Position numbers and translations under genes: made by a program. From IMG/VR virus record IMGVR_UViG_3300020388_000033, positions 1 through 34,775 of that record: a DNA stretch of 34,775 bases, one strand, 5' to 3'. The stretch comes from a virus. Taxonomy: Duplodnaviria > Caudoviricetes. The notes below the pieces were generated by a model, which did no database searches, had not been told where the DNA came from, and was given only the letters and a program-made list of their open reading frames with translations. Below, in pieces: positions 1,935 through 30,200 of this stretch (positions within the stretch are counted from its first letter, which is position 1; each line of letters opens with the position of its first letter).

Positions 1935-4577
1935 ATGTCTACATCAACTCTTAGAGAACTTGTCGAGTCAATAAAGACGCAAGGCAAGACATTAGCAAAT
2001 GCTACGGGAGCCAGTGCCGCAACAGCACGGGACCTAGTTTATTTATCAACGTCAGTCGAACGACTGTTTGGAGCAGACGCAATACTAGAGCTAGTAGATA
2101 GTGCGGCTAAACCAGTGGAAGTTGTAAGTGCGGCTCTTGCATCAACGCAAGCGGTAACACTCACAACAGACCAAGTCACAAAGACTGTTATCAAATTTAC
2201 GAACACAAGTGGAACACACTCTGCTTCAGATTTCACAGCTACAATACCGAATCAAGGTGTGGCTTTCGTCGTAGACAACGAAATGCCAGTACCAGTCAAA
2301 TTCAAAACATCAACTCAATCATCCAACATCGTACAAATCGGTGCTGGTAAAAAAGGCTGGGTGTTCTGTGACGGAACAGTTGTAGAGCATGTAGTTGACA
2401 TTGAAGGGATTACCAGTGCGTTAACCTCCCCCACTGTAAACCCTGGAGATATGATTTACCGAGATGGCAAAGCCAGCGGTTCTACAGAATATTACAACGT
2501 TTATGTAAGAAAATACGGCGGACAGAACTACTATTACTTTGCTCCGTACAGTGGTTACTCAAGCATGGGCGGTTCTTATAATTATCAAAAAACACCTAAC
2601 TTTATCTTGTACCCAGGCGTTACTTATCGTTTCTATCAGGAAGATGGAACAAACACTGGGCACCCACTAAAGTTCTCAACAACACAACATGGCACACATG
2701 CCAGCCCAGCGGGTACAGAATTGTTGGATATCAATAGCGATAGCACCAACGACATCACCTACGCTGGAACTCCTGGTAGCTCAGGTGCTTACACACAGCT
2801 TGTTATACCAACAACAGGCACAAATGTTTCAACCTTTTACTACTATTGCACTAACCACAACTTAATGGGTGGGACTGGCACTGTCTCAGTACCTTCTAGC
2901 GTTGGTGTAACAAAGCTACCAATAGGTCAATCTCAACAGGTTCTAAGAGTTTCTGACGATGGAAACCGACCTTCTTGGTCTTATAGTTATGTAGATGGTG
3001 GGGCAAACGTTGGAGCCGCCGCTCCGCCTCACGACGTAACAGGAACTTGGTCAGAGGGAAGATTCAGGATGGCGACTCTGATATCAGACGCTACAGAATA
3101 TCCTCATGCCGCTAATAAAGGAACTTACAACGCTGGTCATACTAACGAAATGGGTTATAGAGGTTCCGCAATGCTTTATTGGGCAAACGGAAAAACTCAT
3201 GGCAGTGCTTGGGGTCACTTAAACGAGGGCAGAAACGGAGCCGATGGCGATAAGTATGGTGCCTATAGTGGTTGCCCATTAAATTATTCATATGGAAATG
3301 GGGCGGGAGTAGATGGAACAGACCCCGCACAACAAAAATATGCAGACTATGACACTAAGCAAATCATCACTTCTTATGGCAACACAGCTTTATTGCTTGA
3401 AGACGGAAGTATATGGGTTGCTGGAAGAGGAGACGAAGGTCAAATCGGAAACGGCACAGTCACTGATACCTATGGATTTGGAAAGGTAAACATGCCAAGT
3501 GCGGCTGGACCAATCAGATACATAGTCACTACCGCTCAGTATCCAGTTGGTAACGTCACGTTCGGTGCTCTAACAGAGTCAGGAGACGTTTATCTCTGGG
3601 GTTACAATGCCTATGGACAGTGTGGAAGCAATTACGGAACAAACCAAAGCACTCCAGTAAAACATGCTGGTCTATCAAACATTGACTCATTAGTCGGAGG
3701 TGCTGGTGGACAGTATGGAATGTGGGGAGCAATCGACACTAGTGGTAATGCTTACACATGGGGCTACAACGGCTATGGGCAACTAGGTCATGGAAACACA
3801 ACCAGCACAGCAACAGCTACTCAAGTATCGCCACAATCTGGCGTAAAGGTAGCAAAGATTATTATCGCTGGTGGCGGTTCTTATGGAAACAGCTTCTTCC
3901 TGATGGCTAATGGTCGTTTATATGGTTGCGGATTTAACACATACGGAAACATAGGTGACGGCTCTACAACTCAGAGAAACAGCCCAGTTCTTGTATCTAA
4001 TCTAGGATTACAAGCTAATCAGTACGTCGTAGATATGTTTGCACCAGGCGGAGCTTACCTTGACGCTATTAGAATGGCTGTCACAGATAACGGCGACGTT
4101 TGGGGATGGGGACAAAATGCAAGAGGTGCTGTGGGTGTCGGTAATGCAACCCAAATTAACAGCCCAGTAATTGTGCCTGAACTTAAATTCATCAGTCATT
4201 TTACGTCTTCGGGTACTACCACTAGCACATCTTATTACTACAATACCTACATGGCTGTCTGTCATAGAAACTTTGTGGATAGGGAATTGCGTATCAACGG
4301 CACACTAAAATCTGCTGGTTACGGCTCTCCAACAATGGGTAGATATAATATACCTACTAACAACCAGACTTATCTGCCAGTATTCTTGGACGCTAGAGCT
4401 TCTGGAAGAATCAGGTATGCTTGGGGCGGCGGATATCACTCTAGTAGTACACAAGAGATGAGCCGATATTGCATTGACATGGATGGACGGCTTTGGGCTT
4501 GGGGATACAATTCAAATGGTTCTGTAATGAACGAATCAAGTATCAGTCCTTATCTCCCACACATAGCGTCAAAGTAA
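1935..4577 (+). CDS. Fibre/receptor-binding protein with cupredoxin-like domain and C-terminal RCC1/BLIP-II-type beta-propeller
   Basis: AGGAGG RBS. About 7 repeats of type xxxDGxV(Y/W)xWGYNxxGQ(L/I)G in the C-terminal half, and a GHPL...YYYCTNHNLMGG module. Gly/Thr/Ser/Tyr-rich. Confidence 0.8.
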   Translation: MSTSTLRELVESIKTQGKTLANATGASAATARDLVYLSTSVERLFGADAILELVDSAAKPVEVVSAALASTQAVTLTTDQVTKTVIKFTNTSGTHSASDFTATIPNQGVAFVVDNEMPVPVKFKTSTQSSNIVQIGAGKKGWVFCDGTVVEHVVDIEGITSALTSPTVNPGDMIYRDGKASGSTEYYNVYVRKYGGQNYYYFAPYSGYSSMGGSYNYQKTPNFILYPGVTYRFYQEDGTNTGHPLKFSTTQHGTHASPAGTELLDINSDSTNDITYAGTPGSSGAYTQLVIPTTGTNVSTFYYYCTNHNLMGGTGTVSVPSSVGVTKLPIGQSQQVLRVSDDGNRPSWSYSYVDGGANVGAAAPPHDVTGTWSEGRFRMATLISDATEYPHAANKGTYNAGHTNEMGYRGSAMLYWANGKTHGSAWGHLNEGRNGADGDKYGAYSGCPLNYSYGNGAGVDGTDPAQQKYADYDTKQIITSYGNTALLLEDGSIWVAGRGDEGQIGNGTVTDTYGFGKVNMPSAAGPIRYIVTTAQYPVGNVTFGALTESGDVYLWGYNAYGQCGSNYGTNQSTPVKHAGLSNIDSLVGGAGGQYGMWGAIDTSGNAYTWGYNGYGQLGHGNTTSTATATQVSPQSGVKVAKIIIAGGGSYGNSFFLMANGRLYGCGFNTYGNIGDGSTTQRNSPVLVSNLGLQANQYVVDMFAPGGAYLDAIRMAVTDNGDVWGWGQNARGAVGVGNATQINSPVIVPELKFISHFTSSGTTTSTSYYYNTYMAVCHRNFVDRELRINGTLKSAGYGSPTMGRYNIPTNNQTYLPVFLDARASGRIRYAWGGGYHSSSTQEMSRYCIDMDGRLWAWGYNSNGSVMNESSISPYLPHIASK

Positions 4578-4586
4578 GGAGGAACT

Positions 4587-4970
4587 ATGGCTAACTTAGA
4601 ATCATATTCAGGAACAAAGGACAAGGATGGGAAAATAGAAGGTAACTACCTTCCTACACCCAGAACCTTTGTTAGTATAGGTAAACTCCCCTCAACTTGG
4701 GGAAACGAAAACCTAACAGAAATGGGTATTACCTTACTGTTTTCCAAAGACGGAATGCACTGGGGTTCTGTTGATACTGCTATATACAACGCCGCTTTAA
4801 AAAAGAAGTATGCGTTGGCTGACGAAAAAAATAACTATGTTATGAGCATGGCGTTAGAATTAGCACCAAAGTGTCGAGGTAACACCGCCTCCGCTAACGA
4901 AGACTGGGGCATTAAGGTTGACGCTGACAAATTGGCGGATGACCAAAAGACTTACGAAGACGCTCTATAA
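4587..4970 (+). CDS. Hypothetical protein, possible fibre chaperone or accessory
   Basis: AAGGAGG RBS directly after the fibre gene. The function is inferred from position only. Confidence 0.7.
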   Translation: MANLESYSGTKDKDGKIEGNYLPTPRTFVSIGKLPSTWGNENLTEMGITLLFSKDGMHWGSVDTAIYNAALKKKYALADEKNNYVMSMALELAPKCRGNTASANEDWGIKVDADKLADDQKTYEDAL

Positions 4971-5224
4971 TGAGTAGGAAATCTTTGACAGACGAACAGT
5001 TAGAGTCTCTGTTAGAGAGAGCATCACACAAGGGTGCCCAAAGAGCACTTGCCGATATAGGTCTTCAAGACACTAATGCTGTCCACGACATAAAAGACTT
5101 ACGGAATTTAATTGATGGCTATCGTGAATTAAAGAGGACAGTGGCAAGCACTGTTCTTAAATGGTTCGTTGTAGCTTTTTTGGGTTTTGTTTCTCTCGCA
5201 GTTTGGACTCAGATAAAGGATTAG
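4970..5224 (+). CDS. Small membrane protein, DUF6127-like (single C-terminal TM, possibly holin-like)
   Basis: LERA-x2-GA-x-RALADIGL...DI-x-DLR-L pattern recalled as DUF6127, followed by hydrophobic WFVVAFLGFVSLAVW. Confidence 0.65.
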   Translation: MSRKSLTDEQLESLLERASHKGAQRALADIGLQDTNAVHDIKDLRNLIDGYRELKRTVASTVLKWFVVAFLGFVSLAVWTQIKD

Positions 5225-5226
5225 TT

Positions 5227-5385
5227 ATGGCGGCTAAAAAAGGTAAAAAGGACGCTTGCTACCACAAGGTAAAGTCTCGCTATAGAGTTTTTCCATCAGC
5301 TTATGCTTCAGGAGCCTTGGTCTCTTGCCGAAAAGTTGGAGCCGCAAACTGGGGCACAAAGTCTAAAAAGAAAGGCAAAGCATAA
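5227..5385 (+). CDS. Small basic protein (52 aa, MAAKKGKKDACYHKVKSRY...PSAYASGALV.CRK.GAANWG)
   Basis: ATG at 5227 preceded by AAGGA is a better start than 5161. The motif is recalled from other aquatic phages. Confidence 0.75.
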   Translation: MAAKKGKKDACYHKVKSRYRVFPSAYASGALVSCRKVGAANWGTKSKKKGKA

Positions 5386-5513
5386 TGCCTTTTAAAAAAT
5401 ACAGTGCAAAACAAAAGAAATTAGCAAAAGTTGCACCGCCAAGAAATAAGATTACTGGTGCAGACCTAAAGAAACTTCGCAAGAAGCCAACCCCGAAAAG
5501 AAGGAGAAAGTAA
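5385..5513 (+). CDS. Lys/Arg-rich micro-protein MPFKKYSAKQKKLAKVAPPRNKITGADLKKLRKKPTPKRRRK (42 aa)
   Basis: Hand-translated and below the ORF-track cutoff. TAATG-coupled to the previous gene; 18 of 42 residues are K/R. Confidence 0.7.
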   Translation: MPFKKYSAKQKKLAKVAPPRNKITGADLKKLRKKPTPKRRRK

Positions 5514-5514
5514 G

Positions 5515-5628
5515 ATGCCTATCGTTATTAAAGAGTTAAAGCCAAAAAAGAAAAAAATGCCTCTTCCTAAGAAGAAGCCAGCTATGCCTAAAAAGAAAAA
5601 GCCAGCCATGAAAAAGAAGAAGTATTAA
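5515..5628 (+). CDS. Lys-rich micro-protein MPIVIKELKPKKKKMPLPKKKPAMPKKKKPAMKKKKY (37 aa)
   Basis: AAGGAG RBS at 5501-5506; starts 1 nt after the previous stop; 17 of 37 residues are Lys; KKKPAM repeats. Confidence 0.7.
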   Translation: MPIVIKELKPKKKKMPLPKKKPAMPKKKKPAMKKKKY

Positions 5629-5629
5629 A

Positions 5630-5764
5630 ATGCCTGGTGTAATGAAGAAAAAGTTTCCCTATACCCCCGCTGGTATAGCGGCGGCAAAAGTTTACGCCAA
5701 GAAGACTGGTGGAAAACTAATTATGGAAGACAAAAAAAGTGGCTACGGCAAAAAGAAAAAGTGA
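5630..5764 (+). CDS. Lys-rich micro-protein MPGVMKKKFPYTPAGIAAAKVYAKKTGGKLIMEDKKSGYGKKKK (44 aa)
   Basis: Starts 1 nt after the previous stop. The F-x-YT-x2-G-x-AAAK-x-YAKKTG pattern is recalled from small marine phage ORFs. Confidence 0.7.
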   Translation: MPGVMKKKFPYTPAGIAAAKVYAKKTGGKLIMEDKKSGYGKKKK

Positions 5765-5960
5765 TAGTAGTGACGGCTTACGCAAATGGTTCTCTCGGAA
5801 CAATGGCAAAGGCTGGATAGATTGCAAGACAGGAAAACCTTGTGGTAGGCAAAAGGGCGAGAAACGTAAGGGTTACCCAGCTTGCAGACCGACGAAGGCT
5901 CAGTGCAACTCATCCGCTTCCAAAAAGAAAGGACCAGCTAGAATTAGTTGGAAAAAATGA
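5739..5960 (+). CDS. Small basic Cys-containing protein (GLRKWF...WID.KTGKPCGR...YPACRP; DUF5872-like)
   Basis: GTG start overlapping the previous ORF, and ATGA overlap with the next gene. Family assignment is from recall. Confidence 0.7.
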   Translation: MATAKRKSDSSDGLRKWFSRNNGKGWIDCKTGKPCGRQKGEKRKGYPACRPTKAQCNSSASKKKGPARISWKK

Positions 5961-6229
5961 ACAACGTAGAGAAAAAAAGAAAACTAAACGACTTGCTAAA
6001 GTCTGATGGCTGGAGTGTAATCCAACAGAAGATGCAAGAAGAAATTTTATCTGCCGCCTATCAGTTAGCAGAAAATAAGATACTAACGATAGACGAGATA
6101 AACTTTAGACGGGGTGCAATGTTTGCGGCTCGTCGTTTCATGGAACTGCCGAAGAATTTAGACTTACTATTAGACAACGAAATACTAATGGAAAGTGCAA
6201 TAAAGACAGAGGCAGAGACTCAACAATAG
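5957..6229 (+). CDS. Hypothetical head-module protein preceding scaffold (90 aa)
   Basis: ATGA overlap at 5957-5960. Helical protein with an S-x-GW motif, in the position of small pre-scaffold genes of podoviruses. Confidence 0.75.
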   Translation: MNNVEKKRKLNDLLKSDGWSVIQQKMQEEILSAAYQLAENKILTIDEINFRRGAMFAARRFMELPKNLDLLLDNEILMESAIKTEAETQQ

Positions 6230-6265
6230 GACGCTACGGCTTCCACATCGTTCGCTACGGCTAAC
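6229..6265 (+). repeat. Tandem CGCTACGGCT elements, each a cUACGg tetraloop hairpin, abutting the scaffold RBS
   Basis: GGA-C-GC(TACG)GC-T-TCC at 6229-6244 and GTT-C-GC(TACG)GC-T-AAC at 6250-6265, followed by AAAGGAG at 6266-6272. Confidence 0.75.
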
Positions 6266-6278
6266 AAAGGAGATAAAA

Positions 6279-7397
6279 ATGGCAGAACTAAACCAACAAG
6301 ATAAGGCGATGATTGACGCACTAGCTGGTCAACAGCTAGGAGATGCAAACGCTACGGCTCCAGCACCTCAAGCACCACCTGAAGGTATGCCACCTCAAGG
6401 ACAACCGCCACAACAACCCCAAGCACAGCAAGCAGAGGCACCAGAAGTACCTACTGAAGTAGAAAAAGCCCAAGCATCTGTGTCGCCTACTACCGAGGCG
6501 GACAACTCTCTGGATGAGAGCGTAACAATGGTAAAAGTAGACTTTGGCGATGGAGATGTCAGAGACTTGTCTACTAATCAAATCAAAGAAACATTCGGTA
6601 GATACAAAGACGCAAACTACAAGTTGATGCAACAAAAGCCTATGGAACCAGCTATGAAGTACATCCAGTCAATTATGGATGGTGCTAGTAAGAATGGTCA
6701 AAAGGTAGGTGCAGACGACGTAGTTCAATTCTTGCAAGCCGCCGCACAAGCGGCTCTGAAAAACCCTACTATGGGTCAACAGAAAGACCCAACACCTGAC
6801 AGACAAGGTACACCAGTCACCAACATGGCTAACCTTGACAGTGAGTTTGAGACTCAAATCAAAAGATGGGAAGAGGAAAACGCAGTATCCTTGCCACCTA
6901 TGATGCGAGAGGGTTACAAAACAATACAAGCATTACAGTCTGATAACGCAAACATGAGACAGACTCTGAACCAATTCTTGGCTTCTGCTGGACAGATAAA
7001 TCAAGATGCGGCTAAAGCTACAATGCAAGCAGAGACACAAGCTCAAGATGCATATAGGCAAACTGCGGCTAACAACCTCAACGAAGCACAGGCAAAATAC
7101 CAATTACCCGACGAGCAAAGCGACGACTTCTTTACGTTTGCTTTTGAACGGGGTTTTAGTAACGAAGATTTTATAGATGCTGGATTAGTCGATAAAATTA
7201 TGGGTGACTTTGTAGCTGTACGAGGCACACCAGAAATGGAACGACTAAAAGATATGGCAAAAAGACGAGTAGCATTCACAGGAAACATAAATGCTACCCC
7301 AGGGTCATCTGCTGGAGGAGCACAGAGCAAAGACCCAAGCATGGATTTCATCAACAAGGTTGCTGATGAAGCTATGGCTAAGAAAAATATGATGTAA
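6279..7397 (+). CDS. Capsid scaffolding protein
   Basis: Immediately upstream of the MCP. P/Q/A-rich disordered acidic N-terminus, V-x-V...DG-x-V motif, coiled-coil body and low-complexity C-terminal tail. Confidence 0.75.
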   Translation: MAELNQQDKAMIDALAGQQLGDANATAPAPQAPPEGMPPQGQPPQQPQAQQAEAPEVPTEVEKAQASVSPTTEADNSLDESVTMVKVDFGDGDVRDLSTNQIKETFGRYKDANYKLMQQKPMEPAMKYIQSIMDGASKNGQKVGADDVVQFLQAAAQAALKNPTMGQQKDPTPDRQGTPVTNMANLDSEFETQIKRWEEENAVSLPPMMREGYKTIQALQSDNANMRQTLNQFLASAGQINQDAAKATMQAETQAQDAYRQTAANNLNEAQAKYQLPDEQSDDFFTFAFERGFSNEDFIDAGLVDKIMGDFVAVRGTPEMERLKDMAKRRVAFTGNINATPGSSAGGAQSKDPSMDFINKVADEAMAKKNMM

Positions 7398-7399
7398 GG

Positions 7400-7432
7400 G
7401 GACGACTTAAAGTTAAAGTTGTTCTCTAATAT
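7400..7432 (+). promoter_or_regulatory. Putative late promoter GGACGAC-N20-TAATAT for the capsid gene
   Basis: Begins just after the scaffold stop in a 158-nt intergenic region; recurring motif. Confidence 0.6.
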
Positions 7433-7437
7433 AAATA

Positions 7438-7467
7438 ACACGAGACGCTACGGCTTCATATTCGTGT
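7438..7467 (+). promoter_or_regulatory. 5' leader hairpin containing the CGCTACGGCT element
   Basis: ACACGA/TCGTGT outer stem enclosing GA-C-GC(TACG)GC-T-TC. It begins at the expected transcription start of the upstream promoter motif. Confidence 0.6.
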
Positions 7468-7555
7468 GCGGGTTTATCAAATTTACTTTGCTGAAAGCAG
7501 TTTGTTTGTGAGCACCCAGTTATGAAAACGCAATTTATCGCTAAAGGAGGTCAAC

Positions 7556-8734
7556 ATGACTGCGATTACAGGACTGCGTGGGACTGGGCAATTCGGTACA
7601 GAATTTCGTCCCACCAATTATAGAGAGCTATTCACTCTCTTGGAGCCTAACGGAACAGCACCATTGCAAGCACTGCTATCAATGGCTGGTTCGGAGAGCA
7701 CAGACGACCCTAAGTATAATCACTTCAGGGACGAGCTTCCAGACAGAACAGTAACTGTCAACGGAGCAGTCGCATCGACAAGCACTACAGCAATTACGCT
7801 GGACAACGATGACGACGAAGCATTTATTGTTACGGGCACTATCTTACAAAACCAGACAACTGGTGAGATTATGCGAGCAACAGCAGATGCTAACCTAGCC
7901 GCTAATACAATAGCAGTTGAACGTAACATTGGTGGAACATCTCACCAAATTGCTGACGATGCTGTATTGGTTATTGCTGGACATGCCGACCAAGAAGGCG
8001 GGTCCGCACCAACAGCTATTAGCTTCGACCCAACCACAGACTTTAACTTTACGCAGATTTTCAAAACTGCCGTTCAAGTCAGTGGAACTCTCCAGAACAC
8101 ATATTTGCGTACTGGTGACAAAGAGCAAGAGCAACTCACAAAGGCACTCAAACTACACATGGGTGACATTGAGCGAGCTATGTTCTTTGGTAAAAGGCAT
8201 GAAGCAAATGGTACAACTGCAAGCCCAACACGTTACACTGGCGGTCTGTTAACACAGATTACTGACGTAACAGATGGTGCTTCTTTTGGTGCAACTGCAA
8301 ACACTATCACTGAGAAAGAGTTCGACAAACTGTTAATCGAAAACATTTTTGCTTTCGGTGGCTCAGAAAAAGTCGCATTCTGTGGTGCTAGAGTTATTTC
8401 CAACCTTATGGAAATCGGCAAAAATCGTTGGCAACCAACACAAATCGACAACGCTTATGGCGTATCACTAACACGATACACCACATACGCTGGCGACTTG
8501 TTGGTATACATGCACCCAATGTTCCGTCAGACAGGAATGACAGAAGAAATGATTATCCTAGATATGGCTGAGTTAAAGTTCCGTTACATGCAAGGACGTG
8601 ACACTCAACTTATCAGGGATGTTCAAGCTCCTGATTTCGATGGCGTAAAGCATATGTATATGACTGAGTGTGGACTTGAGATGACTCAAGCAAAAGTGCA
8701 CCATCGTATCAAAGGCTGGAACAAAGTCACATAA
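7556..8734 (+). CDS. Major capsid protein (HK97 fold; DUF5309/SU10-MCP-like with inserted beta domain)
   Basis: AAGGAGG RBS. Motifs N-x-TQIF-x3-V-x-VSGT, H-x2-DIE-RAM-x-FG, R-x-TGGL and E-x-GLE. Followed by an intrinsic terminator. Confidence 0.9.
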   Translation: MTAITGLRGTGQFGTEFRPTNYRELFTLLEPNGTAPLQALLSMAGSESTDDPKYNHFRDELPDRTVTVNGAVASTSTTAITLDNDDDEAFIVTGTILQNQTTGEIMRATADANLAANTIAVERNIGGTSHQIADDAVLVIAGHADQEGGSAPTAISFDPTTDFNFTQIFKTAVQVSGTLQNTYLRTGDKEQEQLTKALKLHMGDIERAMFFGKRHEANGTTASPTRYTGGLLTQITDVTDGASFGATANTITEKEFDKLLIENIFAFGGSEKVAFCGARVISNLMEIGKNRWQPTQIDNAYGVSLTRYTTYAGDLLVYMHPMFRQTGMTEEMIILDMAELKFRYMQGRDTQLIRDVQAPDFDGVKHMYMTECGLEMTQAKVHHRIKGWNKVT

Positions 8735-8766
8735 GGACGATTAAGGACTCCCCTTAATGTTAAGAT
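8735..8766 (+). promoter_or_regulatory. Putative promoter GGACGAT-N19-TAAGAT overlapping the capsid terminator
   Basis: Recurring motif starting at the first base after the MCP stop. The spacer also holds an ATTAAGG/CCTTAAT inverted repeat. Confidence 0.45.
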
Positions 8767-8794
8767 AAGGACGGCAACAGCCGTCCTTATTTTT
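8765..8794 (+). terminator. Rho-independent terminator after major capsid gene
   Basis: Perfect 11-bp stem ATAAGGACGGC / GCCGTCCTTAT with loop AACA, followed by a T run. Confidence 0.85.
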
Positions 8795-8807
8795 ATTGGA
8801 GGTAATA

Positions 8808-9188
8808 ATGGCAGAAAGAGCAAGGAACGACAAAGGTCAACTCATAGGAGATGACTTGAGCACACCTGAAGTAAACGAGGCTTGGGTAGGTGGCACAGCA
8901 CCAAGCAAGAGTGCAAAAGAGAAGGCATCAAACAATCGCAAGGTAGCTAAAGCACAAAAGGCTATTGAGAAATCAGCACCAAAAAATAGTCAGCGTAAAG
9001 AGCACACCATATACGTCTCAGCAGAGCCTCAAGTAATTAACAGAGAGACTGGTTTAAGGGGCGAGACATACAAAACATATTGGGATGAAGATAGGGAATA
9101 CAACATGTTTTCTATCAAACCTCAACATGTAGAGGCTTTTGAAATGCATGAGTTCTTTGTAAAAGGAATTTATATTAAAGAGGAGTAG
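8808..9188 (+). CDS. Hypothetical protein (RARNDKGQLIGDD.STP.VNEAW motif)
   Basis: GGAGG at 8798-8802 points to the ATG at 8808 rather than 8796. The N-terminal motif is recalled from marine phage ORFs. Confidence 0.75.
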   Translation: MAERARNDKGQLIGDDLSTPEVNEAWVGGTAPSKSAKEKASNNRKVAKAQKAIEKSAPKNSQRKEHTIYVSAEPQVINRETGLRGETYKTYWDEDREYNMFSIKPQHVEAFEMHEFFVKGIYIKEE

Positions 9189-9191
9189 AAA

Positions 9192-10013
9192 ATGAGCTAT
9201 CACACTGGCAGTAGCGGTTCTTCATCAGGCTCTAGTTCTAGCGGTTCCAGTTCCAGTTCTAGTTCTAGCAGTAGTAGTAGCGGTAGCAACGCAGTATCTA
9301 ACACTAATGCAAATGCTAGTGCGGCAAATGCTAGTAGTGGAAGTTCAGGAACAGGAAACTCTGGAGTAAACAGGGCATACGACAATATCACTGGTGCAAG
9401 ACCAGTAAATACAGACCCAGTTCACACAGACCCAGGCACTGGTAGAACTGATATGCCAGGTGCTCGTGACCTAAGAGACGTAATTGACGCAAACACAGAG
9501 CGTGAAATACGAACTACATGGCAAGAAGACTGGGATAAAGAAGAGGGTCGTAACAGGTATTCTGTAAACAATCCTCACATATCAGAGCCATATAGTGACC
9601 TGGAAGCACTCGTCTTTCAGGCTCTTCGTCGTTACGGAGATATGCACCCAGGCACTGTAGATGGCGAAGTCATGTTAATGTTTGTAGAGTTTGCCAACTT
9701 GGTTATCGAAGACTTACGGGGTCATGTGTACTGGGACAATCCTGAGATTGACTACTACACACATCCACAACAACAACGAGCAATACCAGACTCAATAATG
9801 GTTTCAGGTTTGCTTTATCACTACTCAGTTCAGCAACAATCGAATAAGATTGAGGCGTATGGACCGATGTATTTTAAAATGATGAACAGAATTTTGTATC
9901 AGAGAAAGTATGGCTCTGGTCCAATAGAGATGTCTCCTTGGGACAAATCTGTTACACCGACTGGTTCACAGCCATATGATGCAAGGAGAGATGGGAAAAG
10001 GACTAACTACTAA
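9192..10013 (+). CDS. Putative head-tail adaptor (tail tubular A/gatekeeper-like) with Ser/Gly low-complexity N-terminus
   Basis: GAGGAG RBS. The C-terminal ~140 aa is a helical domain (LV..ALRR...FAN.VI.DL...W) directly upstream of the nozzle gene. Confidence 0.55.
   Translation: MSYHTGSSGSSSGSSSSGSSSSSSSSSSSSGSNAVSNTNANASAANASSGSSGTGNSGVNRAYDNITGARPVNTDPVHTDPGTGRTDMPGARDLRDVIDANTEREIRTTWQEDWDKEEGRNRYSVNNPHISEPYSDLEALVFQALRRYGDMHPGTVDGEVMLMFVEFANLVIEDLRGHVYWDNPEIDYYTHPQQQRAIPDSIMVSGLLYHYSVQQQSNKIEAYGPMYFKMMNRILYQRKYGSGPIEMSPWDKSVTPTGSQPYDARRDGKRTNY
9207..9365 (+). repeat. Low-complexity Ser/Gly-coding tract (AGTTCT/AGTAGT-type repeats)
   Basis: Encodes GSSGSSSGSSSSGSSSSSSSSSSSSGS...ASSGSSGTGNSG. 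Confidence 0.8.
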
Positions 10014-21279: not shown

Positions 21280-24200
21280 ATGGGACGTTTTTACAATCCA
21301 GGCTCAGGTCAGGGTCAAATATCAGGTGCAGAGTCATCGTACCAACAGTCAGATTATTCTGAGTCACTGAACACAGACGACGCAGAATCTCTTCTTGACG
21401 ATAATAGATTTATTCAAGACATTTACGATTACTACGGCGAAAGAGACGGAACGTCTTTTGGTGGTCAGAAAGAAGCCGTAGAACATTTCTTAAACGATAG
21501 ACGTTGGAGAAACTTTAACACTGTTGCAATTGGTAAAGACGTATACGACGCACACAACCAGTCAGCAGTACAGTCTCAACGACTAGCAAGAATACAAAAA
21601 GTTTACGACGCACTCCCTAATTTTACTGGTGGAGTTGGAAGCACATTAGCAGATGTAGCGTTACCACTACTACTCGACCCACTAAATCTTGTGGGTTTTG
21701 GTTCAGGTGGAGCCGCCGCTAGAGCGGCAGTTGCTGGTGCAAAAGGTCTTACAAAAAATCAACTACTAACAAAAGGTCTGAAAGCTGGTGCTTATGGTGG
21801 TGCTAAAGGCGAAGCAGTCGCTGGAGGTATTGCTGAAGGTATCGCCGACATTGGAATACAAAACAGAAACATTGAGATAGGACTGCAAGATGAGTTTAGC
21901 TACATGCAGTTGGCTGGCTCAACAGCATTTGGTGCGGCTACTGGCGGTGCTATGGGTGCTGGTATGGGTGCGGTTGGTGCGGTTGCCCCAGTCCGAAACC
22001 TTGGTGTAGGCAAATTAAACTTTGACGACAGTGCTATTGCTGGCGACCAAGGAGGAATGCTTAACAAAGCGGGAGGATTCCAAGCAACTAAAGAAGATAT
22101 GACTGGTGAAAATCTTCAAAAGATTGCTGATTCTATGGGAATTAGCATAGAAGAAGCACAGAAGTTAACAAGGTCATCCATTGGTCGTGGTCAAATTGAT
22201 GCGGCTATTCGAGACTCAGATTCCTTACTAGACGCTCTACGACCTCAAGCATCCGCAAGGATAGACGCTGGTGCTGGTGCAAATGGCGGTGAAGAAACTG
22301 TTCCTTGGGGAGAAAACCTAGATGACAACCAAGTCATAGACGAATTGGTTAAGGGTTATGAACAAGAAATTTCAAGTAGAGGAGAATTTCTAAACCCTAC
22401 TGAAGGACAAAGGGCAGAAGGTTTAGATGTAGTTGGTGCTTCAGAACAAAACCGAGTAAACCTAGATACAGACCCAGACATAATAAATGCTAGGAAAAAT
22501 ATTGCTCAGTTAAAGTGGGTGCAAGAGTGGCACAAATCAATCAAGCCAAATCTACTAAGAAAAAAAGAAGAATTACTTAAAGGACTGACTCCAGAAGAGT
22601 TGGCATCAAACGAGCCTCCACAATCAATCAGAGATATAGACACCCTGATTGCAGACGGAAATGAGAAGCATAGACGAATATCTAAGTTTGGCAGAGACCT
22701 TGTCCAAAAGGGTGCGGTTGACCCAAGCAGAGAACTAGATGATTACATCTCAACAGTTGTAGACGACCAGCTTCTTCTTGAGGGACCAAACACTCCTCAA
22801 CAGATAGTTAACCAAAACGCTGGTCAACAGTTGCTTCCAGACAACAGCCCAGATACTGCTAATGTAAACGCAGAAATTGGCAGAACTGTTCAAGGCGAAG
22901 GCTTTGAAACAGAGGTTGCTGGCGGAACTGTAACTCGTGACGACGGAACAAAGATAGCTGAAGGTGCGGCAGTTGAGCCAATCACCGACGAAGCTGGCAT
23001 AGCCAGTGATGGTGATGCCAGGGTTGAAGGCACACGAGCACAAAAAGAACAACGTGTCGGTGAACTCAAGCAAAGGCTTTCACGACGTAAGGGTAGCTTG
23101 GAGCACGACAAAAGATTTGCAAAGCAAGAGCTTGCAAAAGCTATCACTCCAGAAGAAATTGATGCGGCAAACAAAAAGATTGCTGACTTAGACAACGAAC
23201 GTCGTGACGCAAAAGTAGAGCTTTCAGAGCTTGAGGGTCAATTAGAAGAAACACTGGACACTGCAAACCCAGAAGTTCAGGCAAAGCTAACTGAAGCCGC
23301 AGATGAAGTGGCAAATGAAATTGACGCAGAAATAGATTTAGAAGTTGATGCAGAGCTAACAGAGTTTAGAGAGAGGTTCCTTTCAGCAGACCAAATGCTT
23401 GAAGCGGCTTTGGTAAACTTTAAAGCAACAAAAGCAAATACCAGAACTCTACTAACAACCCTTGGTTATGATGCCTCTAAAGTAAAAGAGATTCAAGCCA
23501 ACATGCCTAAAGGCAACACAACAGACGCTAGAACTGGAAGGCTTATGGTGTTGAAAAACATCATAGAGGCTCATCAAGGTCGTGAAGCCTTTAATGGTAT
23601 GCTTAGAATTGCAATGAAAGGTGGCGACACTATACCTGTTCACCTTTTAGACGACGCTATCGTAGATGCTTTGATAGTAAACACTGTTCCAGAAAGACTA
23701 CAGCCACATGCATTTCAGCATTTCCATGACTGGAAACAGTCTCAGATGGACGGCATCATTGCCACTGTCCACTTTGAGGTAGAGGGCTTATCAAACACAC
23801 AAGAATTAAAGAGTGCTGTTAGGTCTTTGTTTGGAAACACAAAACTCGTTGAGGACATTGATGCTTATATAGACAGTGGTCTTGATAGAAAGTTACAGAA
23901 CGCTAACCCAAATAAGTTTGATGGCAAAGGTTATGTCGATGAACAACTAGCAAGACTTCAAAAGCAAAACCCTAACCTAGCCAATGCTTGGAATGATTTT
24001 CAAAAGAAGACACTTGCCAACTTCCTAAAAGGCAACAAGAACATTAGCGAGGCTCGTGCAAAGCAACTGTTCGACGGCGTTGTCGAAGAGATGTGGGATA
24101 AGTTCTCAAGAACAGAGACATTCAAAAGAGTATCTAATCATGGTCAGACCTACAGCGTAAAAGGTCTAACGACGAAGACTATGAACGACGTATCAGTTGA

Positions 24201-27200
24201 TGAGACTCAAATCACAGGCGGCGACTACATGGGTCGCTCAATCAATAGGCTTGGAAACTATACTTCTGGTAATGGAAAACAAGGTTCTGGCAGAGACATA
24301 ACCAATAAAGACGTTGGTAAGATACAATCAATCTTGAGGTCTACTCGACCAGACCAAGACTACTTTGACTCTTCAACATTTGACACAGTCACAACCACAG
24401 TAGATGGCGTAAAGAGAATCTACACTGGTGGTGCGGCGGCTCGTATCCTAGACAACCAAAAGCTACTTGAGAGCAGTAAGTCTCAAGCTATGGTAAACGA
24501 CGGAATTAAAAGACAACGAAGCATTAACTTAGCTGAGAAAAGAAAAGGCACTGAGGGATACAGAACCTATCAGGACGTTATTGAAGTTGAGGGTGCGATA
24601 AAGAAAATCAAATCTGCAAAGCAGAAGATTGCAAGGCTAACAAAAGACGAAGCCAGTCTTGATGAAGAACTAGGCATAGTACCAGAAAATGACCCACGCA
24701 GAGCAAAACTTGAAACTAGGTTTGAAAAAGCGTTGGCAGATTTACAGTCTGGTCGTCAAGCTATCCAAGCAATGCTTAACGAGAAAGACGCTGTTGGTGT
24801 AAAGAATTTAAGAAACGCCGCCGCTAAAACACGTTATGTAAAGATAGAAGACCTTGATGATGCTTCTCTTCTTGAAGAAGCTAGAGAAATGCTTGTGCCT
24901 TTAACAAAATCTACAAGGCAAGAAGTAAACGCAAACGTTGTAGAAGAAAGACGCACAAGTGTAATGAGTCAGATGGCTGACTTAAAAGCAGAGCGTATTC
25001 CATTACTGAAAGAAAAAGGCAAATTAGTAAACGCTGGTGGACCACCTTCTCAAAACTTACTTGATATCACTCTACGTCTTAACGCCATAAGAGCAGAGCT
25101 AGTTAAGTTAGAGAAGAAACTTACTCCAGCAGAATTAAAAAGAATACAAAATGACGACTACACTGTTGCAAGAAACACTCTTGCCAATATCAAACGTGAA
25201 GCCCGTATTGCAAATCAGAAAGACAACAAGCCTTTAGAGCTTAACGACGAAGAGTTACTTGATGCAGTAGAAGAGACTACTGGGCAACGACCAAAGATGG
25301 ATGACGTTGCACAGATAGAAGAGCAGATAATGAATATGGGTCTTTCTGAAAATCAGATGAACTCTCAACTTGCATCACTAAAACAATTTGTTATGGACAA
25401 CAATGTTACTGAGGCTGATGCGAAAGCCGCCGCTAAAGAGATTGTTCAGAACACTAACAGAACTCCGTCAAAGCCAACGACTAAGCCTTCAGGTGTTAAG
25501 AGAAATCCAACAATTGTTCAGATAGGTGAAAAAGCATACGACCTTTCAAATGACATACAGTGGAAGTCTATAGGAAAAAACAAGGCTGAAGTAAACATCA
25601 ATGGCAAAAAGCTAGGAACTGTTGAGCACAACGGAGCCACTGATAGCTTCAGTGCGACTATAATAAAGCAAGATGGAAGTCTAATCACAACGGCTGTAGC
25701 TAAGTCTAAAAAGGATATGAACTTAGCAATAGCACAAATGTTTAGAAAAGAACTGGACGAAATTGTAGAAACAAAAGACATCCCACTGGAAGGCGTAGTG
25801 GCAGATGGTCCAATGAATGTAACCGACTGGCATCAAACAAATAGATACAGAGGCAAAAAAGACTCGCCTAAAGTTACAGATACCGAAGACTACATCGCTG
25901 ATGCAAGTCCAGAGAACATGTCACAACAAGACCCAGCAATGGATATTGTTCCATCTGAATTTGATTTGCCAGAAGAGCAGATGTTAACAATTCAAATCAT
26001 AGACCCAAAGCATCCAAAGTATGGAGAGACTCGCAACTTCTATCAAGGCGACGACCAAACTGTGGGTCAAGTAGCTGGTACATTAAAGCCAGAGCAATAT
26101 GTAGTTGGTCAGTCTTTACGAATAAATCCAAAGACAGGTCAGATAAACAAAAACAGCAACATGCTTTCTAAGAAGACGTTCAGACCTCTGAACTCTGAAG
26201 ACATGTTTGTAAATGTATCAGGCACAATGCTAAAGGGAAAAGACGTAGGAGTTGTAACTGATGCTGGAAACTCTTTGGGATTAAGCCCAAGAGCCAGAGT
26301 CAACAAGCCTCTTAACGTAGCAGAGTTAGACAACATGCCTCTAACTCAAGAAAGCCTTTCTCCAAAAATGAAGGCAAAGCGTATTCAAAATGGAGATATT
26401 AGAACTGTTGGAGACCTAAGACGTTTTGCTGACGAAATGGAAAACATAGAGTGGAGCCAGCTAAAAACTGTGGCTCACTTTGATTTCGTTGTAAGCAATC
26501 TTGAAGGAGCTTACGAGACTCTTAACAAACTTGCTCCTAGTGGCATCAAGCTACCTAATGAGACAAGGGTAAAAAGCTACAACAACCTAAAGAAGATAAT
26601 AACAAGTAGGTCTGAAGCTGATGTTGCTCAGATGCTTTCGTTGTTCAATAACATAGCTGGTTCTCAAAACAGACTGCAAGCTCCTACAGATAGTATGATG
26701 CCTAAGTTTGAGAAGTTTAAGAAGTATGCTTTTCATCGAAACACTGGCGATGCTCAATCTAACACTGTGTTTATGAAGGCTGATGCTACTGGACCAAACG
26801 ATATTCCAGATGCCGTGTTCTTTACACATGAGATGGGACACTGGGCATACGCAAACATGCTCACAGATGCAGAGAAGCTACAGTTCTGGGGAGTAGCAAG
26901 AAAGTACATGACACAAAATGATGGCATGGACACTGGAATGCTAAAGAAAAAACTACCTGGATTTATGAGCAACGAAATAGAAAGTCCAGCAGAGTTCTTT
27001 GCTAATCAGTTTACAATATACGCAATGAACAGAACTCCAGGTGCGACTCAATCGTTGTTTGAAAAGGTAGCTGGGAAAATCAAGCAGTTGATAGGCAAAG
27101 TCCTTAAAATGGAAGAGCCTCTTGACCCTGATTTGATTCCTCTGTTTGAAAAAATTATGCCTGACCCACAAAAAGCAACTGGCACAGTCACTGAAGGCAG

Positions 27201-30200
27201 AGCTTTGGCTAACCAATTCGACGAACTAATGACACGACTAAAGGGAATAGACCTAGAAAAGAATGGTGCAGTTGGAATTGCCGCACAAGAATTGCACGAC
27301 TTACGGGCACTACAAATTAAACTGGAGAAAGCACTATCCGACAACTCACTAATGGTAGGAGGTGATAAAAATACAGCACCTTTACAAGACGTATTAAAAG
27401 AAGTTGCGTCTGTAGTTTATGGAAAGTACGGAGGACAGGGTGGTTCAAAGACACATAAGAGCGGTGCAAAAAGAATCACACTTCTTGATAGTTACAGCAA
27501 AGGCAAGCCAGCAGTAGATAGAACAAAGCCAGAAATAACTCTTCCTAATGGCAAGACCATGCATCCGTTCTACTTTATGAACGCAAGGATAGCTCGTGGA
27601 AGATTGCTGGGAACAAGCAATAAAATTCATAGAACTCTGTACGACGAAAAGGCTATGTCCAGCAGTGCAGAGCTAGAAAAACTTATTGCAGAACAACGTG
27701 CAGACCAAATGTCTACAATCGAAGACGAACAATTAGCTATGATTGATAACGACTTCATGGCTTTGGAGAGAGTTATCGACGAAGACTTTGCGGTATCTGG
27801 ACTACAAGGTTCTGGTTCTCTTGGCTCTACATTTGATGTTGAGGCAAACATTCTAAGGAGTCAGTCTTACCTTAAACCTGATGACGCTAACCTAGAAAAA
27901 CTACTCGTCGGTCAAGCAAACGATATGATTGTTGCACTTGATTCCGCTATTGATGAATACACAAATGTATTCAATCGTAACATGCGACAAGTATCAGGTG
28001 GGGTTAAAGCACCAGCAATTGATAAGGCTGGTAGAATATTCAGTGCTGGAAACAGTGTGGCTAAAAAGTATCAAAAGAAAGCGTACAACAGAAATAATAA
28101 AATAGCTTTGGCTGTTATGAAAGCTATTGATGACACGACAGAAACCTTTGGTGACATGCCACCGATAGTAGATGCTCCTGTTAGGAAGTCTCCTAAAGAC
28201 ATGTCTGACACAGAGATACTAGAGAACATTCATCAAATAGGAACAAGAAGCCCTAATACAAAAGAGCTTAAACAAGAAATATTTATGAGACGTAGGGCTG
28301 AACCAGTAATGAAGCCTTTTGAAGATTTGACTCCTGATGAAAAGGATTTTTATCAGAGCTTACTGAAAGACGTTTCAACATTGCCTAAAGCAGAGCAAGT
28401 CCAAATGCTCAGAGGTAAGGTTGATGAGTTAATCAATCAAGGTAGTTACGACGATGCCAACATGGTTATCGGAATACTTTCTATTCAACCAGGCGTGGTT
28501 CCTGTCAAGCCAAAGGCTTCGTTGTTGGGCAGAGCACTTGACATTGAGTACAGTCAAGGTCGCAAAGCTGATGCTAGTAATGGAGTTCCAGGTGACGCAC
28601 CTCCAGCAATTAAGGAAGTTCTTACAAAGATAACACACAGAGACAAAAACATAGAGCATGGTGCAAGAACTATGCTTTACAGAATGCTTAACTTATTAGG
28701 CAGAACAGCAAGAGACAACCTACAAGACAACACAACCTTCATGTCTGTTGAAGACTTATACAGAATGTCTGGAACAAAAGGCACCGCTGGAACAAAGGCG
28801 GCGTTTACAGAGGTTGGTCCTACTAGAGGTAAAGTCTTTAATGATTTAAGGAAAGACTTACGTCGTTACGCCATTGGGATAAATGAAGGCAAAGCTGACC
28901 CACTTGATATCATGCACGAAGTTGGTCACATGGTTAGCCGTAGTGTGTTCAAAGACCAAGACTATGACAACATGCTTTCAGGGTTCACAGACGCATTGCG
29001 TCAAGGAGACCCTAGTGCGTTAGCAATGCGTGACAAGTATTCAAAACTTCCTCCAGAAGCTGGCTATGATGACAAGAACATAGCAGAAGAATGGTTTGTT
29101 GAAAGCTGGGCACAATGGATGTCAGAGAAAGTCGCAAAAGGTGACTTGTTCAAAGTGAGATATCAAGATGGTGCAGTCACAGACTTAAAGGCAAAGTCAT
29201 ACCTGATGCAACTGGCGAACGACCTCTACGATTACACTGCCTACATACTAAATGGTCTCATGGGCAGAACCAGTATGAAGCAAATGTTCCGTCAGATGAC
29301 GTATCATGGGGACATGTTTACACCAAAGAGACTGAGCAACAGCGTAAAGAACTCCGTTGATACCTTTGATTTCCCATTGGTGAACCTGTCTGTTGCTGAC
29401 AGATACGCAAGAAACGTAATAGACACTATGGCTCCAGAGAAGAAACTTCTTGCTAGAGAGTTTGTAGGTGCTGGTCCAGACGAAGACTTGATGGACTACG
29501 TTGTTTATCATGGAACACCAGCAGTAGATATTTTCAATAGAAACAAAAACCCAGACGTGTACCTACACTCAAGTGATAATGGTGCTTATGGTCCAGGCGT
29601 TTATGTAACTCCTGACTCGTCGTTAGCTGGCGACTTTGGCGGACCAGACGCTATGGGAGTTGGAGGTGCTTCAGTTGCAAGAGCTAGAATAATAACGCAA
29701 ATGAAGGATAAGGCTCTTGTTAAAGAAGCTGAAAACCTAAACGACATGATTACCAATTATGACAACATGATTATGGAAGCTGATTACGATAGGTTTGGCA
29801 TTGATGATTTCATGGACGAGCTTACTGGAGGTTACTTAGATGGAGAGATGGATAAGATTCGTCGTTCAAGAGCGGCGGCTTTAGAAGCCTTTGCAAAAGT
29901 AACTGGATTCAAAACACACCCAGGAATCATGCCTCTTTTTGTTAAGAAAAAGAATGTGATGGATTTTTCTCAAAACAAAATCTATTCGCTTGAAACTGGC
30001 GAGCCTAACGACATGTTACATTTCGTTACAAACTTGCAAATGAATGGTGTCATAACTCCAGAAGCTAGAGTCAGAATGGTTAACAAACTTTCTATGGATG
30101 CTGACTTTGATGGGGAGTTATTTTATTCATACCTATTAGAAGCTATATCTCCTAACGACTTAGACGGAGCAAAGATAGCTTTAGCCAAGCACTTACAGAC

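Follow-up and report, generated by a model that had tools for sequence, protein, structure and literature searches.

A covarying hairpin module in the scaffold and capsid leaders of marine phages related to CRP-810: a putative RNA operator

RESULTS

Hairpin copies at the head genes

The stretch of DNA analyzed here (the window) is IMG/VR record IMGVR_UViG_3300020388_000033, a 34,775-base virus fragment with a structural gene module on the + strand. Its subject is a short hairpin that recurs in the leaders of two head genes. The first gene is an open reading frame (ORF) of 372 amino acids (positions 6279 to 7397) that precedes the capsid gene and likely encodes the scaffolding protein (here, the scaffold); the second encodes a major capsid protein of the SU10 type (7556 to 8734; PF17236, E 5e-45; phrog_1328). 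A 10-mer, CGCTACGGCT, occurs exactly at 6232, 6253, 6350, and 7446, on the + strand only, as a first-pass annotation of this DNA had reported. One more match, with a single mismatch, lies at 28936 on the − strand; shuffled sequences average 0.70 matches when one mismatch is allowed. That annotation put the expected number of a given 10-mer at well under one per window. Nine 10-mers in the window have at least four + strand copies, against 6.0 expected from order-4 Markov simulations, so four copies alone are unremarkable, whereas four copies inside 1.3 kb appeared in 3 of 300 simulations. The basic micro-genes described below hold an A-rich 10-mer that likewise has four copies within 1.3 kb.

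Copies 1, 2, and 4 fold as the first-pass annotation had drawn them, into a module with a 2- to 3-bp stem, a C·Y mismatch, a GC/GC pair, and a YNMG loop. The outer stem is GGA/UCC in copy 1, the distal scaffold-leader module (GGA-C-GC-UACG-GC-U-UCC; 6229 to 6244), and GUU/AAC in copy 2 (GUU-C-GC-UACG-GC-U-AAC; 6250 to 6265), which is proximal to the Shine-Dalgarno (SD) sequence and is the best-conserved site. In copy 4 (7438 to 7467), GA/UC is extended by ACACGA/UCGUGU. Folding z scores were −3.2 and −1.8 for isolated 25-mers and about −0.8 for longer pieces. A variant at 6263 (A to G; a single contig, from four RNA-labelled runs) keeps a G·U pair.

The placements given earlier were also right: copy 2 by the scaffold SD sequence, copy 3 early in the coding sequence, and copy 4 in the capsid leader. 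Copy 2 ends 2 nt from the SD sequence AGGAG (6268 to 6272) of the scaffold-like gene, copy 3 spans codons 24 to 27, and copy 4 lies 100 nt 5' of the capsid ATG. Upstream of the scaffold gene is a small ORF of 89 to 90 amino acids (5957 to 6229) with three helices and an FRRG motif; its stop overlaps the first hairpin, the last base of TAG being the first G of copy 1.

Copy 3 (6340 to 6369; N-A-T-A-P in frame) lacks the short stem. AAA and CCA beside the mismatch are unpaired, and GC(UACG)GC instead sits atop a longer helix, from which a 4x4 loop separates it. In the clade of the window, 9 of 19 occurrences of A-[STP]-A in scaffold codons 11 to 33 use GCY-HCG-GCY; the figure for the remainder of the scaffold and capsid genes is 0 of 75. 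A full 4- to 5-bp stem was found at this position in five relatives, two of which fold otherwise. Copy 3 is probably a degenerate third site, with codons that are apparently selected.

Conservation and covariation in relatives

Five scans yielded 316 capsid-bearing loci (the window and Roseobacter phage CRP-810 included) that formed 93 clusters at 95% capsid identity; the 88 clusters with at least 50% capsid identity to the window were used, and 5 distant clusters were left out. CRP-810 is the nearest cultured phage, with a capsid 61% identical to that of the window; the other 25 records were below 34%. It encodes homologs of the scaffold and the upstream ORF in the same gene order, and it has the module at both sites (record positions 43737 and 42538); its gp46 is annotated as hypothetical. 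PMC11288001 presents CRP-810 as the type member of a marine phage family whose members are mostly temperate, and reports a LuxR-like gene in 107 uncultivated virus genomes and CRP-810 only.

The core (Y-GC-YNNG or GNRA-GC-Y) was the sole criterion for choosing sites. The hairpin proved to be conserved: of 78 readable scaffold leaders, 71 have it at the SD-proximal site, and of 86 capsid leaders, 77 have it near the start. The three outer pairs of the SD-proximal stem form in 69, 71, and 67 of the 71 sites (shuffle maxima, 56, 51, and 40), and each outer position uses three to five pair types. A second, distal scaffold-leader copy is present in 26 of the 78 leaders, with stems paired in 26, 25, and 24 of them, and capsid-leader stems are paired in 72 and 70 of 77.

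The covariation that had been noticed among copies within one genome extends to the relatives. At the SD-proximal site (63 distinct rows) the covariation score was 0.591, compared to 0.139 after shuffling; this value was reached in 0 of 500 shuffles, and slid partners gave at most 0.171. Parsimony on the capsid tree counted 10, 17, and 18 double changes at this site (0 to 4 for slid partners), 8, 8, and 4 at the distal site, and 15, 20, and 8 at the capsid site (0 to 6 for slid partners over all sites). About 45 compensatory stem changes map to the tree for the scaffold site.

Chance, or a coding constraint from Ala-Thr/Lys-Ala codons, has a negligible probability as the source of these repeats. 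Copy 3 is in frame, the upstream gene of some lineages reads through the scaffold hairpin as S-A-K/T-A-E, and 102 of the 120 loci that a pattern search for tandem cores gave (from 20 of the 64 parts of IMG/VR) have no scaffold nearby and mostly resemble coding repeats. However, both stems had at least three pairs in 16 of the 18 scaffold-linked tandems versus 0 of the 102 others. The place of the upstream stop relative to the hairpin varies (ahead of it, inside it, or past it), as does the frame; the capsid copy is noncoding; and for copies 1, 2, and 4, covariation rules out a chance or coding origin.

The loop and the mismatch are constrained differently from the stem. With any loop allowed on stems of at least 2 pairs, 153 of 166 loops were YNMG; the spectrum includes UACG, CACG, UUCG, CAAG, and UAAG, and UAUG, GAAA, and GCAA also occur. 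The module thereby has the C-G closing pair and YNMG loop that define a known loop class, where GC/GC was part of the search core. In lineage L063, both leaders have changed to GNRA loops. With flanks left free, the mismatch was Y·Y in 172 of 175 cores, with a 5' C in 166 and a Watson-Crick pair in 1, and changing it to a pair would add about 6 kcal/mol. Variable stems combined with a fixed, destabilizing mismatch point to recognition of shape.

The spacing differs between the two leaders. The scaffold-site stem ends 11 to 17 nt 5' of the ATG in 67 of 71 leaders, and the capsid copy lies 74 to 149 nt from its ATG. The scaffold-capsid gap is 140 to 521 nt in 74 of 78 members of the family. Two kinds of departure were seen in scaffold leaders. 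L316 and L545 have lost the module there and have a different small hairpin in the same place, just 5' of the SD sequence. L046, L047, L050, and L054 have tandem hairpins and an SD sequence followed by an insert of 60 to 135 nt before the scaffold's own SD sequence; the insert contains a short ORF ending L-P/Q-A/T-G-N, and translational coupling is possible.

Restriction to the two leaders

A model built from the SD-proximal sites was used to search 16 long records. At E<1e-3, 17 of 17 matches fell in scaffold and capsid leaders, in agreement with the restriction first reported for the window; some of these 17 sites had trained the model, and the informative part of the result is the absence of matches elsewhere. 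One of the 16 records had no strong match. Six weaker genome-wide matches, checked by eye, had no leader geometry. Extra GCTACGGC matches in relatives, considered as further copies of the module, were coding instead (RYGD, GYG). Thus, neither a loss of conservation or covariation in relatives nor scattered copies, either of which the first-pass annotation had named as counting against its proposal, was found.

The module is absent from six cultured phages with 25 to 33% capsid identity, whose scaffold-capsid gap is 6 to 50 nt. In L432 (30% capsid identity), the capsid leader has a GC(CACG)GC hairpin at 3930 to 3960 with an A·C mismatch and a long stem, possibly a distant relative. Model matches occurred in 11 of 101 bacterial genomes from the class of a Brevundimonas-labelled genome, 80 candidates being scored per genome; of 12 matches, the 9 with readable context were all in long open frames, on either strand, and none of these 9 preceded an SD-ATG pair. 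Rfam 15 gave 0 matches in the window at the gathering threshold and 3 chance-level matches at E up to 10 in 6150 to 7600. Our literature search found no description of this hairpin motif, and the main text of the CRP-810 paper (PMC11288001) has no mention of a promoter, scaffold, or hairpin. The core sequence is absent from the searchable supplements of Fremin 2023 (PMC10690425), with the alignment archives lying outside that search; the candidate from that study located before DUF5309, DNAVirus_5700, was rejected as this element because it is a 4-sequence terminator from engineered solids. We conclude that the module is a real, uncatalogued cis element.

Capsid leader and a candidate late promoter

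A motif, (A)GGGACGA(C), lies 5' of the capsid hairpin, and a TANNNT hexamer starts 25 to 26 nt later in 53 of 77 leaders (the search pattern allowed two variants, and L259 was mispicked). In the window this feature spans 7398 to 7432, with GGACGA at 7400 to 7405 and a −10-like hexamer 25 to 27 nt on. GGACGA(C) with a −10-like hexamer recurs at 8735 and 21217, before late genes that have no hairpin, and inside genes at 1824 and 16918; in the CRP-810 record GGACGA(C) is found at 57582, 54984, 44227, 42591, 41248, and 31279. The sites are on the late strand and mostly intergenic, with the hexamer 25 nt on. Because the motif recurs before other late genes without the hairpin, we read it as a late promoter, a candidate for a family-wide one with a noncanonical −35 element (ACGACA). 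Some scaffold sites (15 of 71) also have a promoter-like motif within 70 nt, and 56 of 71 do not.

The predicted transcript start is near 7437, and pairing begins at most 3 nt from the predicted start in 67 of 77 folds. The capsid leader is predicted to open with a 5' helix (P1, copy 4) that carries the module as its cap, followed by a second hairpin (P2) and then a linker. P2 (7470 to 7517; cap GCUGAAAGC at 7490 to 7498) lies about 57 to 84 nt 5' of the capsid ATG, and its cap motifs were found in 54 of 86 leaders with two search patterns. The cap is GCUGNA in the window's clade and a bulged stem, GCG-A(U/A)-G or GCG-U-G, on the CRP-810 side. P2 is duplicated in the L316 lineage, which lost the main module. 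A hairpin at 7398 to 7426, after the scaffold stop, overlies the promoter-like motif and is terminator-like with a U run in many relatives; a GC-rich hairpin with a U run follows the capsid gene at about 8765 to 8800.

This anatomy bears on two alternatives. The module could be a protein-independent 5' stabilizer or ribosome standby structure that makes head messages long-lived. C(UUCG)G hairpins lie between T4 genes, the loop class is extra-stable, the capsid helix begins almost at the predicted start, and some scaffold sites have the nearby promoter-like motif. Yet selection for stability should close the mismatch, which is closed in 1 of 175 cores, and would not fix its 5' C (166 of 175) or the GC/GC order; moreover, other late promoters lack the module, and most scaffold sites lack a nearby promoter motif. 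We therefore regard a stabilizer as rather unlikely.

The second alternative, a loading site for antitermination on the model of lambda boxB or of the UNCG hairpin bound by LoaP, appears quite improbable. LoaP binds a leader UNCG hairpin and requires it for antitermination (PMC12691694), the capsid copy is promoter-proximal, and terminator-like hairpins were seen by eye after the scaffold and capsid genes in many relatives. However, no + strand terminator was called in the leader downstream of the hairpin or elsewhere in 4500 to 9300, by a scan that also missed the by-eye candidate after the capsid gene. Fresh promoter-like motifs directly after scaffold and capsid would make read-through unnecessary, and the best-kept copy adjoins an SD sequence. 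No NusG paralog or N protein was found among the 26 scanned proteins of the window or the 63 annotations of CRP-810, many of which are hypothetical.

Elsewhere in the window are an SU10-type portal gene (120 to 1124, + strand; profile matches), a gene for an 880-amino-acid tail-fiber-like protein with RCC1 repeats (1935 to 4577), and an ORF of 3,944 amino acids (21280 to 33114) behind its own promoter-like motif. The last had no match in Pfam, PHROG, or PDB and is probably an internal virion protein.

The likely scaffold and other candidate readers

The 372-amino-acid ORF received no family name from Pfam or PHROG, and fold and profile searches gave no informative known fold. Its predicted model is helical (mean predicted local distance difference test [pLDDT] score, 75; predicted TM score, 0.36), and BFVD returned weak matches to "Scaffolding protein" (E 1e-3 to 6e-3; TM <0.2). 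The position of the gene, the helical model, and these matches make a scaffolding protein the likely product. The model has a beta-hairpin at residues 84 to 98 and a helix at 99 to 138, with conserved residues Q101, R108, Y109, and N113 and an aromatic residue at 114.

Lineages with altered leaders were compared at the protein level. The module has been lost from both leaders of L316, a lineage confirmed by two further records. Of 109 scaffolds, only that of L316 lacks R108 as well as N113, and 14 of its 46 conserved positions are changed, whereas all conserved positions are intact in the capsid (172 of 172) and upstream ORF (11 of 11) of this lineage. All 98 scaffolds whose two leaders are canonical have Y, H, or F at position 114; the position is nonaromatic in L063 (both loops GNRA), L286/L321, L316, and L424. 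It is the only column of 72 at which all three double-loss lineages deviate, compared to 0 of 24 columns in the upstream ORF and 0 of 243 in the capsid. The pattern was matched by 2 of 364 random long-branch triples and by 5 of 300 eight-lineage draws. A later set of 35 scaffolds had an aromatic residue at 114 in 32 of them, and both new nonaromatic lineages had an abnormal SD-proximal site. This covariation is a lead, correlative in nature, toward the scaffold as the reader of the module.

A different protein (the capsid, the product of the upstream small ORF, that of an unlinked phage gene, or a host factor) could instead read the RNA site and raise or time head-gene translation. All RNA evidence for the module applies equally to such a reader, the module is common to the two most demanded head genes, and the SD sequence is predicted to be mostly unpaired (median, 0.68). 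The upstream ORF is present in 59 of 61 lineages, with invariant residues W18, M25, R51, G52, and P64 (R51-G52 being adjacent), and its AlphaFold model has a pLDDT of 94.7; it had no Pfam, PHROG, PDB, or fold match, and its Atlas look-alikes are unnamed viral clusters. Against these readers, the capsid and upstream ORF of L316 are unchanged at conserved positions despite the loss of the module, whereas the scaffold is not, and the bacterial matches lie in coding-like context, none before an SD-ATG pair. A reader other than the scaffold is possible and, in our estimate, has well under an even chance.

Four highly basic micro-ORFs (5227 to 5764; 37 to 52 amino acids, 29 to 46% K+R) are patchy in relatives. 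Their products were rejected as a universal reader: each turned up, within 1.5 kb, in no more than 7 of 61 lineages, with short queries of limited sensitivity.

DISCUSSION

We tentatively propose, at somewhat less than even probability, that the module is a putative RNA operator bound by free scaffold, which would probably block translation of the scaffold itself. That the module acts as RNA rather than DNA is inferred from its loop class, the GNRA swap, and its position. The module would fold in the mRNA with a UNCG-type loop, and the retained C·Y mismatch and GC/GC pairs would form the recognition surface. The reader would be the beta-hairpin/helix region of the scaffold around R108 to Y114. 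The 30S subunit covers the region where the scaffold-site stem ends, and scaffold bound 11 to 17 nt before the AUG could exclude it. Procapsid assembly would use up free scaffold and so relieve repression. The capsid copy, at the predicted 5' end of a message that this family appears to transcribe separately, is too distant from its SD sequence for blocking and would couple the two genes, either by competing for free scaffold or by holding scaffold at the capsid message. What stands of the first-pass proposal, a protein-binding RNA element that coordinates scaffold and capsid, is a covarying hairpin limited to both leaders; protein binding, reading by the scaffold, and control of stoichiometry are interpretations.

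A number of observations weigh against this proposal. The identity of the scaffold is positional, and fold searches gave no recognizable RNA-binding fold for it. The link to position 114 is post hoc and involves few long-branch lineages, so divergence could drive both traits. L424 (Q at 114) retains the hairpin at the scaffold; the capsid hairpin is still canonical in L061 (K), L411 (Q), and L545 (Q); one leader is abnormal in nine lineages with an aromatic residue; and 31 of 115 motif-bearing representatives are nonaromatic at 114, in a count that left leader context aside. In L046, L047, L050, and L054, the hairpins precede the inserted short ORF and not the scaffold start. Since the capsid copy lies 74 to 149 nt from its ATG, one blocking mechanism cannot explain both sites. 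Finally, the choice of strand draws no help from energetics: wobble counts favor neither strand (8 G·U versus 5 A·C at stem positions 1 and 2), RNA energies are alike on both (−4.15 versus −3.77, with the sense strand better in 28 of 53), and DNA parameters make the antisense strand more stable (−2.17 versus −0.9).

These strand comparisons, together with the exact core repeats, are what a DNA element would draw on, whether protein-binding repeats or a hairpin extruded from the template strand, in the manner of N4 promoters. The direct-repeat version had been suggested because copies 1 and 2 are 21 bp apart, and it is weakened by the relatives, in which the offset between these cores is 21 to 28 nt and the scaffold leader has just one copy in 45 of 71 lineages. 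In addition, the flanks keep complementarity and not sequence, the loops of the sense strand fit a class of RNA loops, the module sits 3' of the promoter-like motif and beside an SD sequence, and the 3,944-amino-acid protein has no polymerase match in Pfam, PHROG, or PDB. A DNA element is thus very unlikely.

Beyond the scaffold-bound operator, a broader circuit can be imagined. The scaffold would be an RNA-binding protein specific for structure and would recognize one hairpin on two messages that are transcribed separately. It would turn off its own translation, and the capsid message would titrate it or receive it, such that scaffold supply tracks capsid synthesis; this could be a general, RNA-based way for tailed phages to set stoichiometry, each family having a hairpin code of its own. 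We consider this extension speculative and, taken as a whole, unlikely. Because the cultured member CRP-810 carries the module, binding and reporter tests would be direct. A hairpin-protein pair from globally distributed marine phages could also serve as an orthogonal translational switch.

Several known systems resemble the module in part. The MS2 and Qbeta coat operators are small hairpins bound by a virion-assembly protein that represses translation, and they hold the initiation signals and a bulged A inside the hairpin; the hairpin described here is upstream of the SD sequence, has a Y·Y mismatch, and belongs to a double-stranded DNA phage. The N4 virion-polymerase promoter is a template-strand hairpin upstream of the start site, whereas the module lies downstream of a predicted promoter motif, the start site being itself predicted.

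As described in PMC5633025, the YNMG class carries the UNCG fold, and domain d of the enterovirus oriL is bound by 3C. The likeness lies in the C-G closing pair, the YNMG/YNUG-like loops, and a shape that is kept over loop sequence. However, cUNCGg/cYNMGg is a structural class and not a family, the virus and function are unrelated, and the module here adds an invariant GC/GC pair and a C·Y mismatch. The LoaP UNCG hairpin of dfn and mln (PMC12691694) and boxB of lambda and P22 are likewise small protein-bound hairpins near an operon 5' end. They act on transcription elongation with a NusG paralog or N protein, whereas the main copy here adjoins an SD sequence.

The matching of scaffold to capsid in tailed phages is known mainly from P22, and to our knowledge the P22 RNA target was never structurally defined. 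The present analysis names a 16-nt element, a candidate protein surface (scaffold residues 84 to 116), and natural lineages with loss of the module or a switch of its loop. In P22, free scaffold limits its own synthesis via its N-terminal part (bioRxiv 10.1101/2022.12.13.520362), and this autoregulation is a precedent for a scaffold-bound operator. The likeness to P22 gp8 lies in the proposed logic and in a control site at the translation initiation region (stem 11 to 17 nt from the ATG in 67 of 71 leaders); no sequence or fold link between gp8 and the window's scaffold was found in PDB, and scaffolds diverge fast. What sets the present system apart from P22 is a defined, covarying hairpin that often occurs in tandem and recurs in a capsid leader with a separate candidate promoter.

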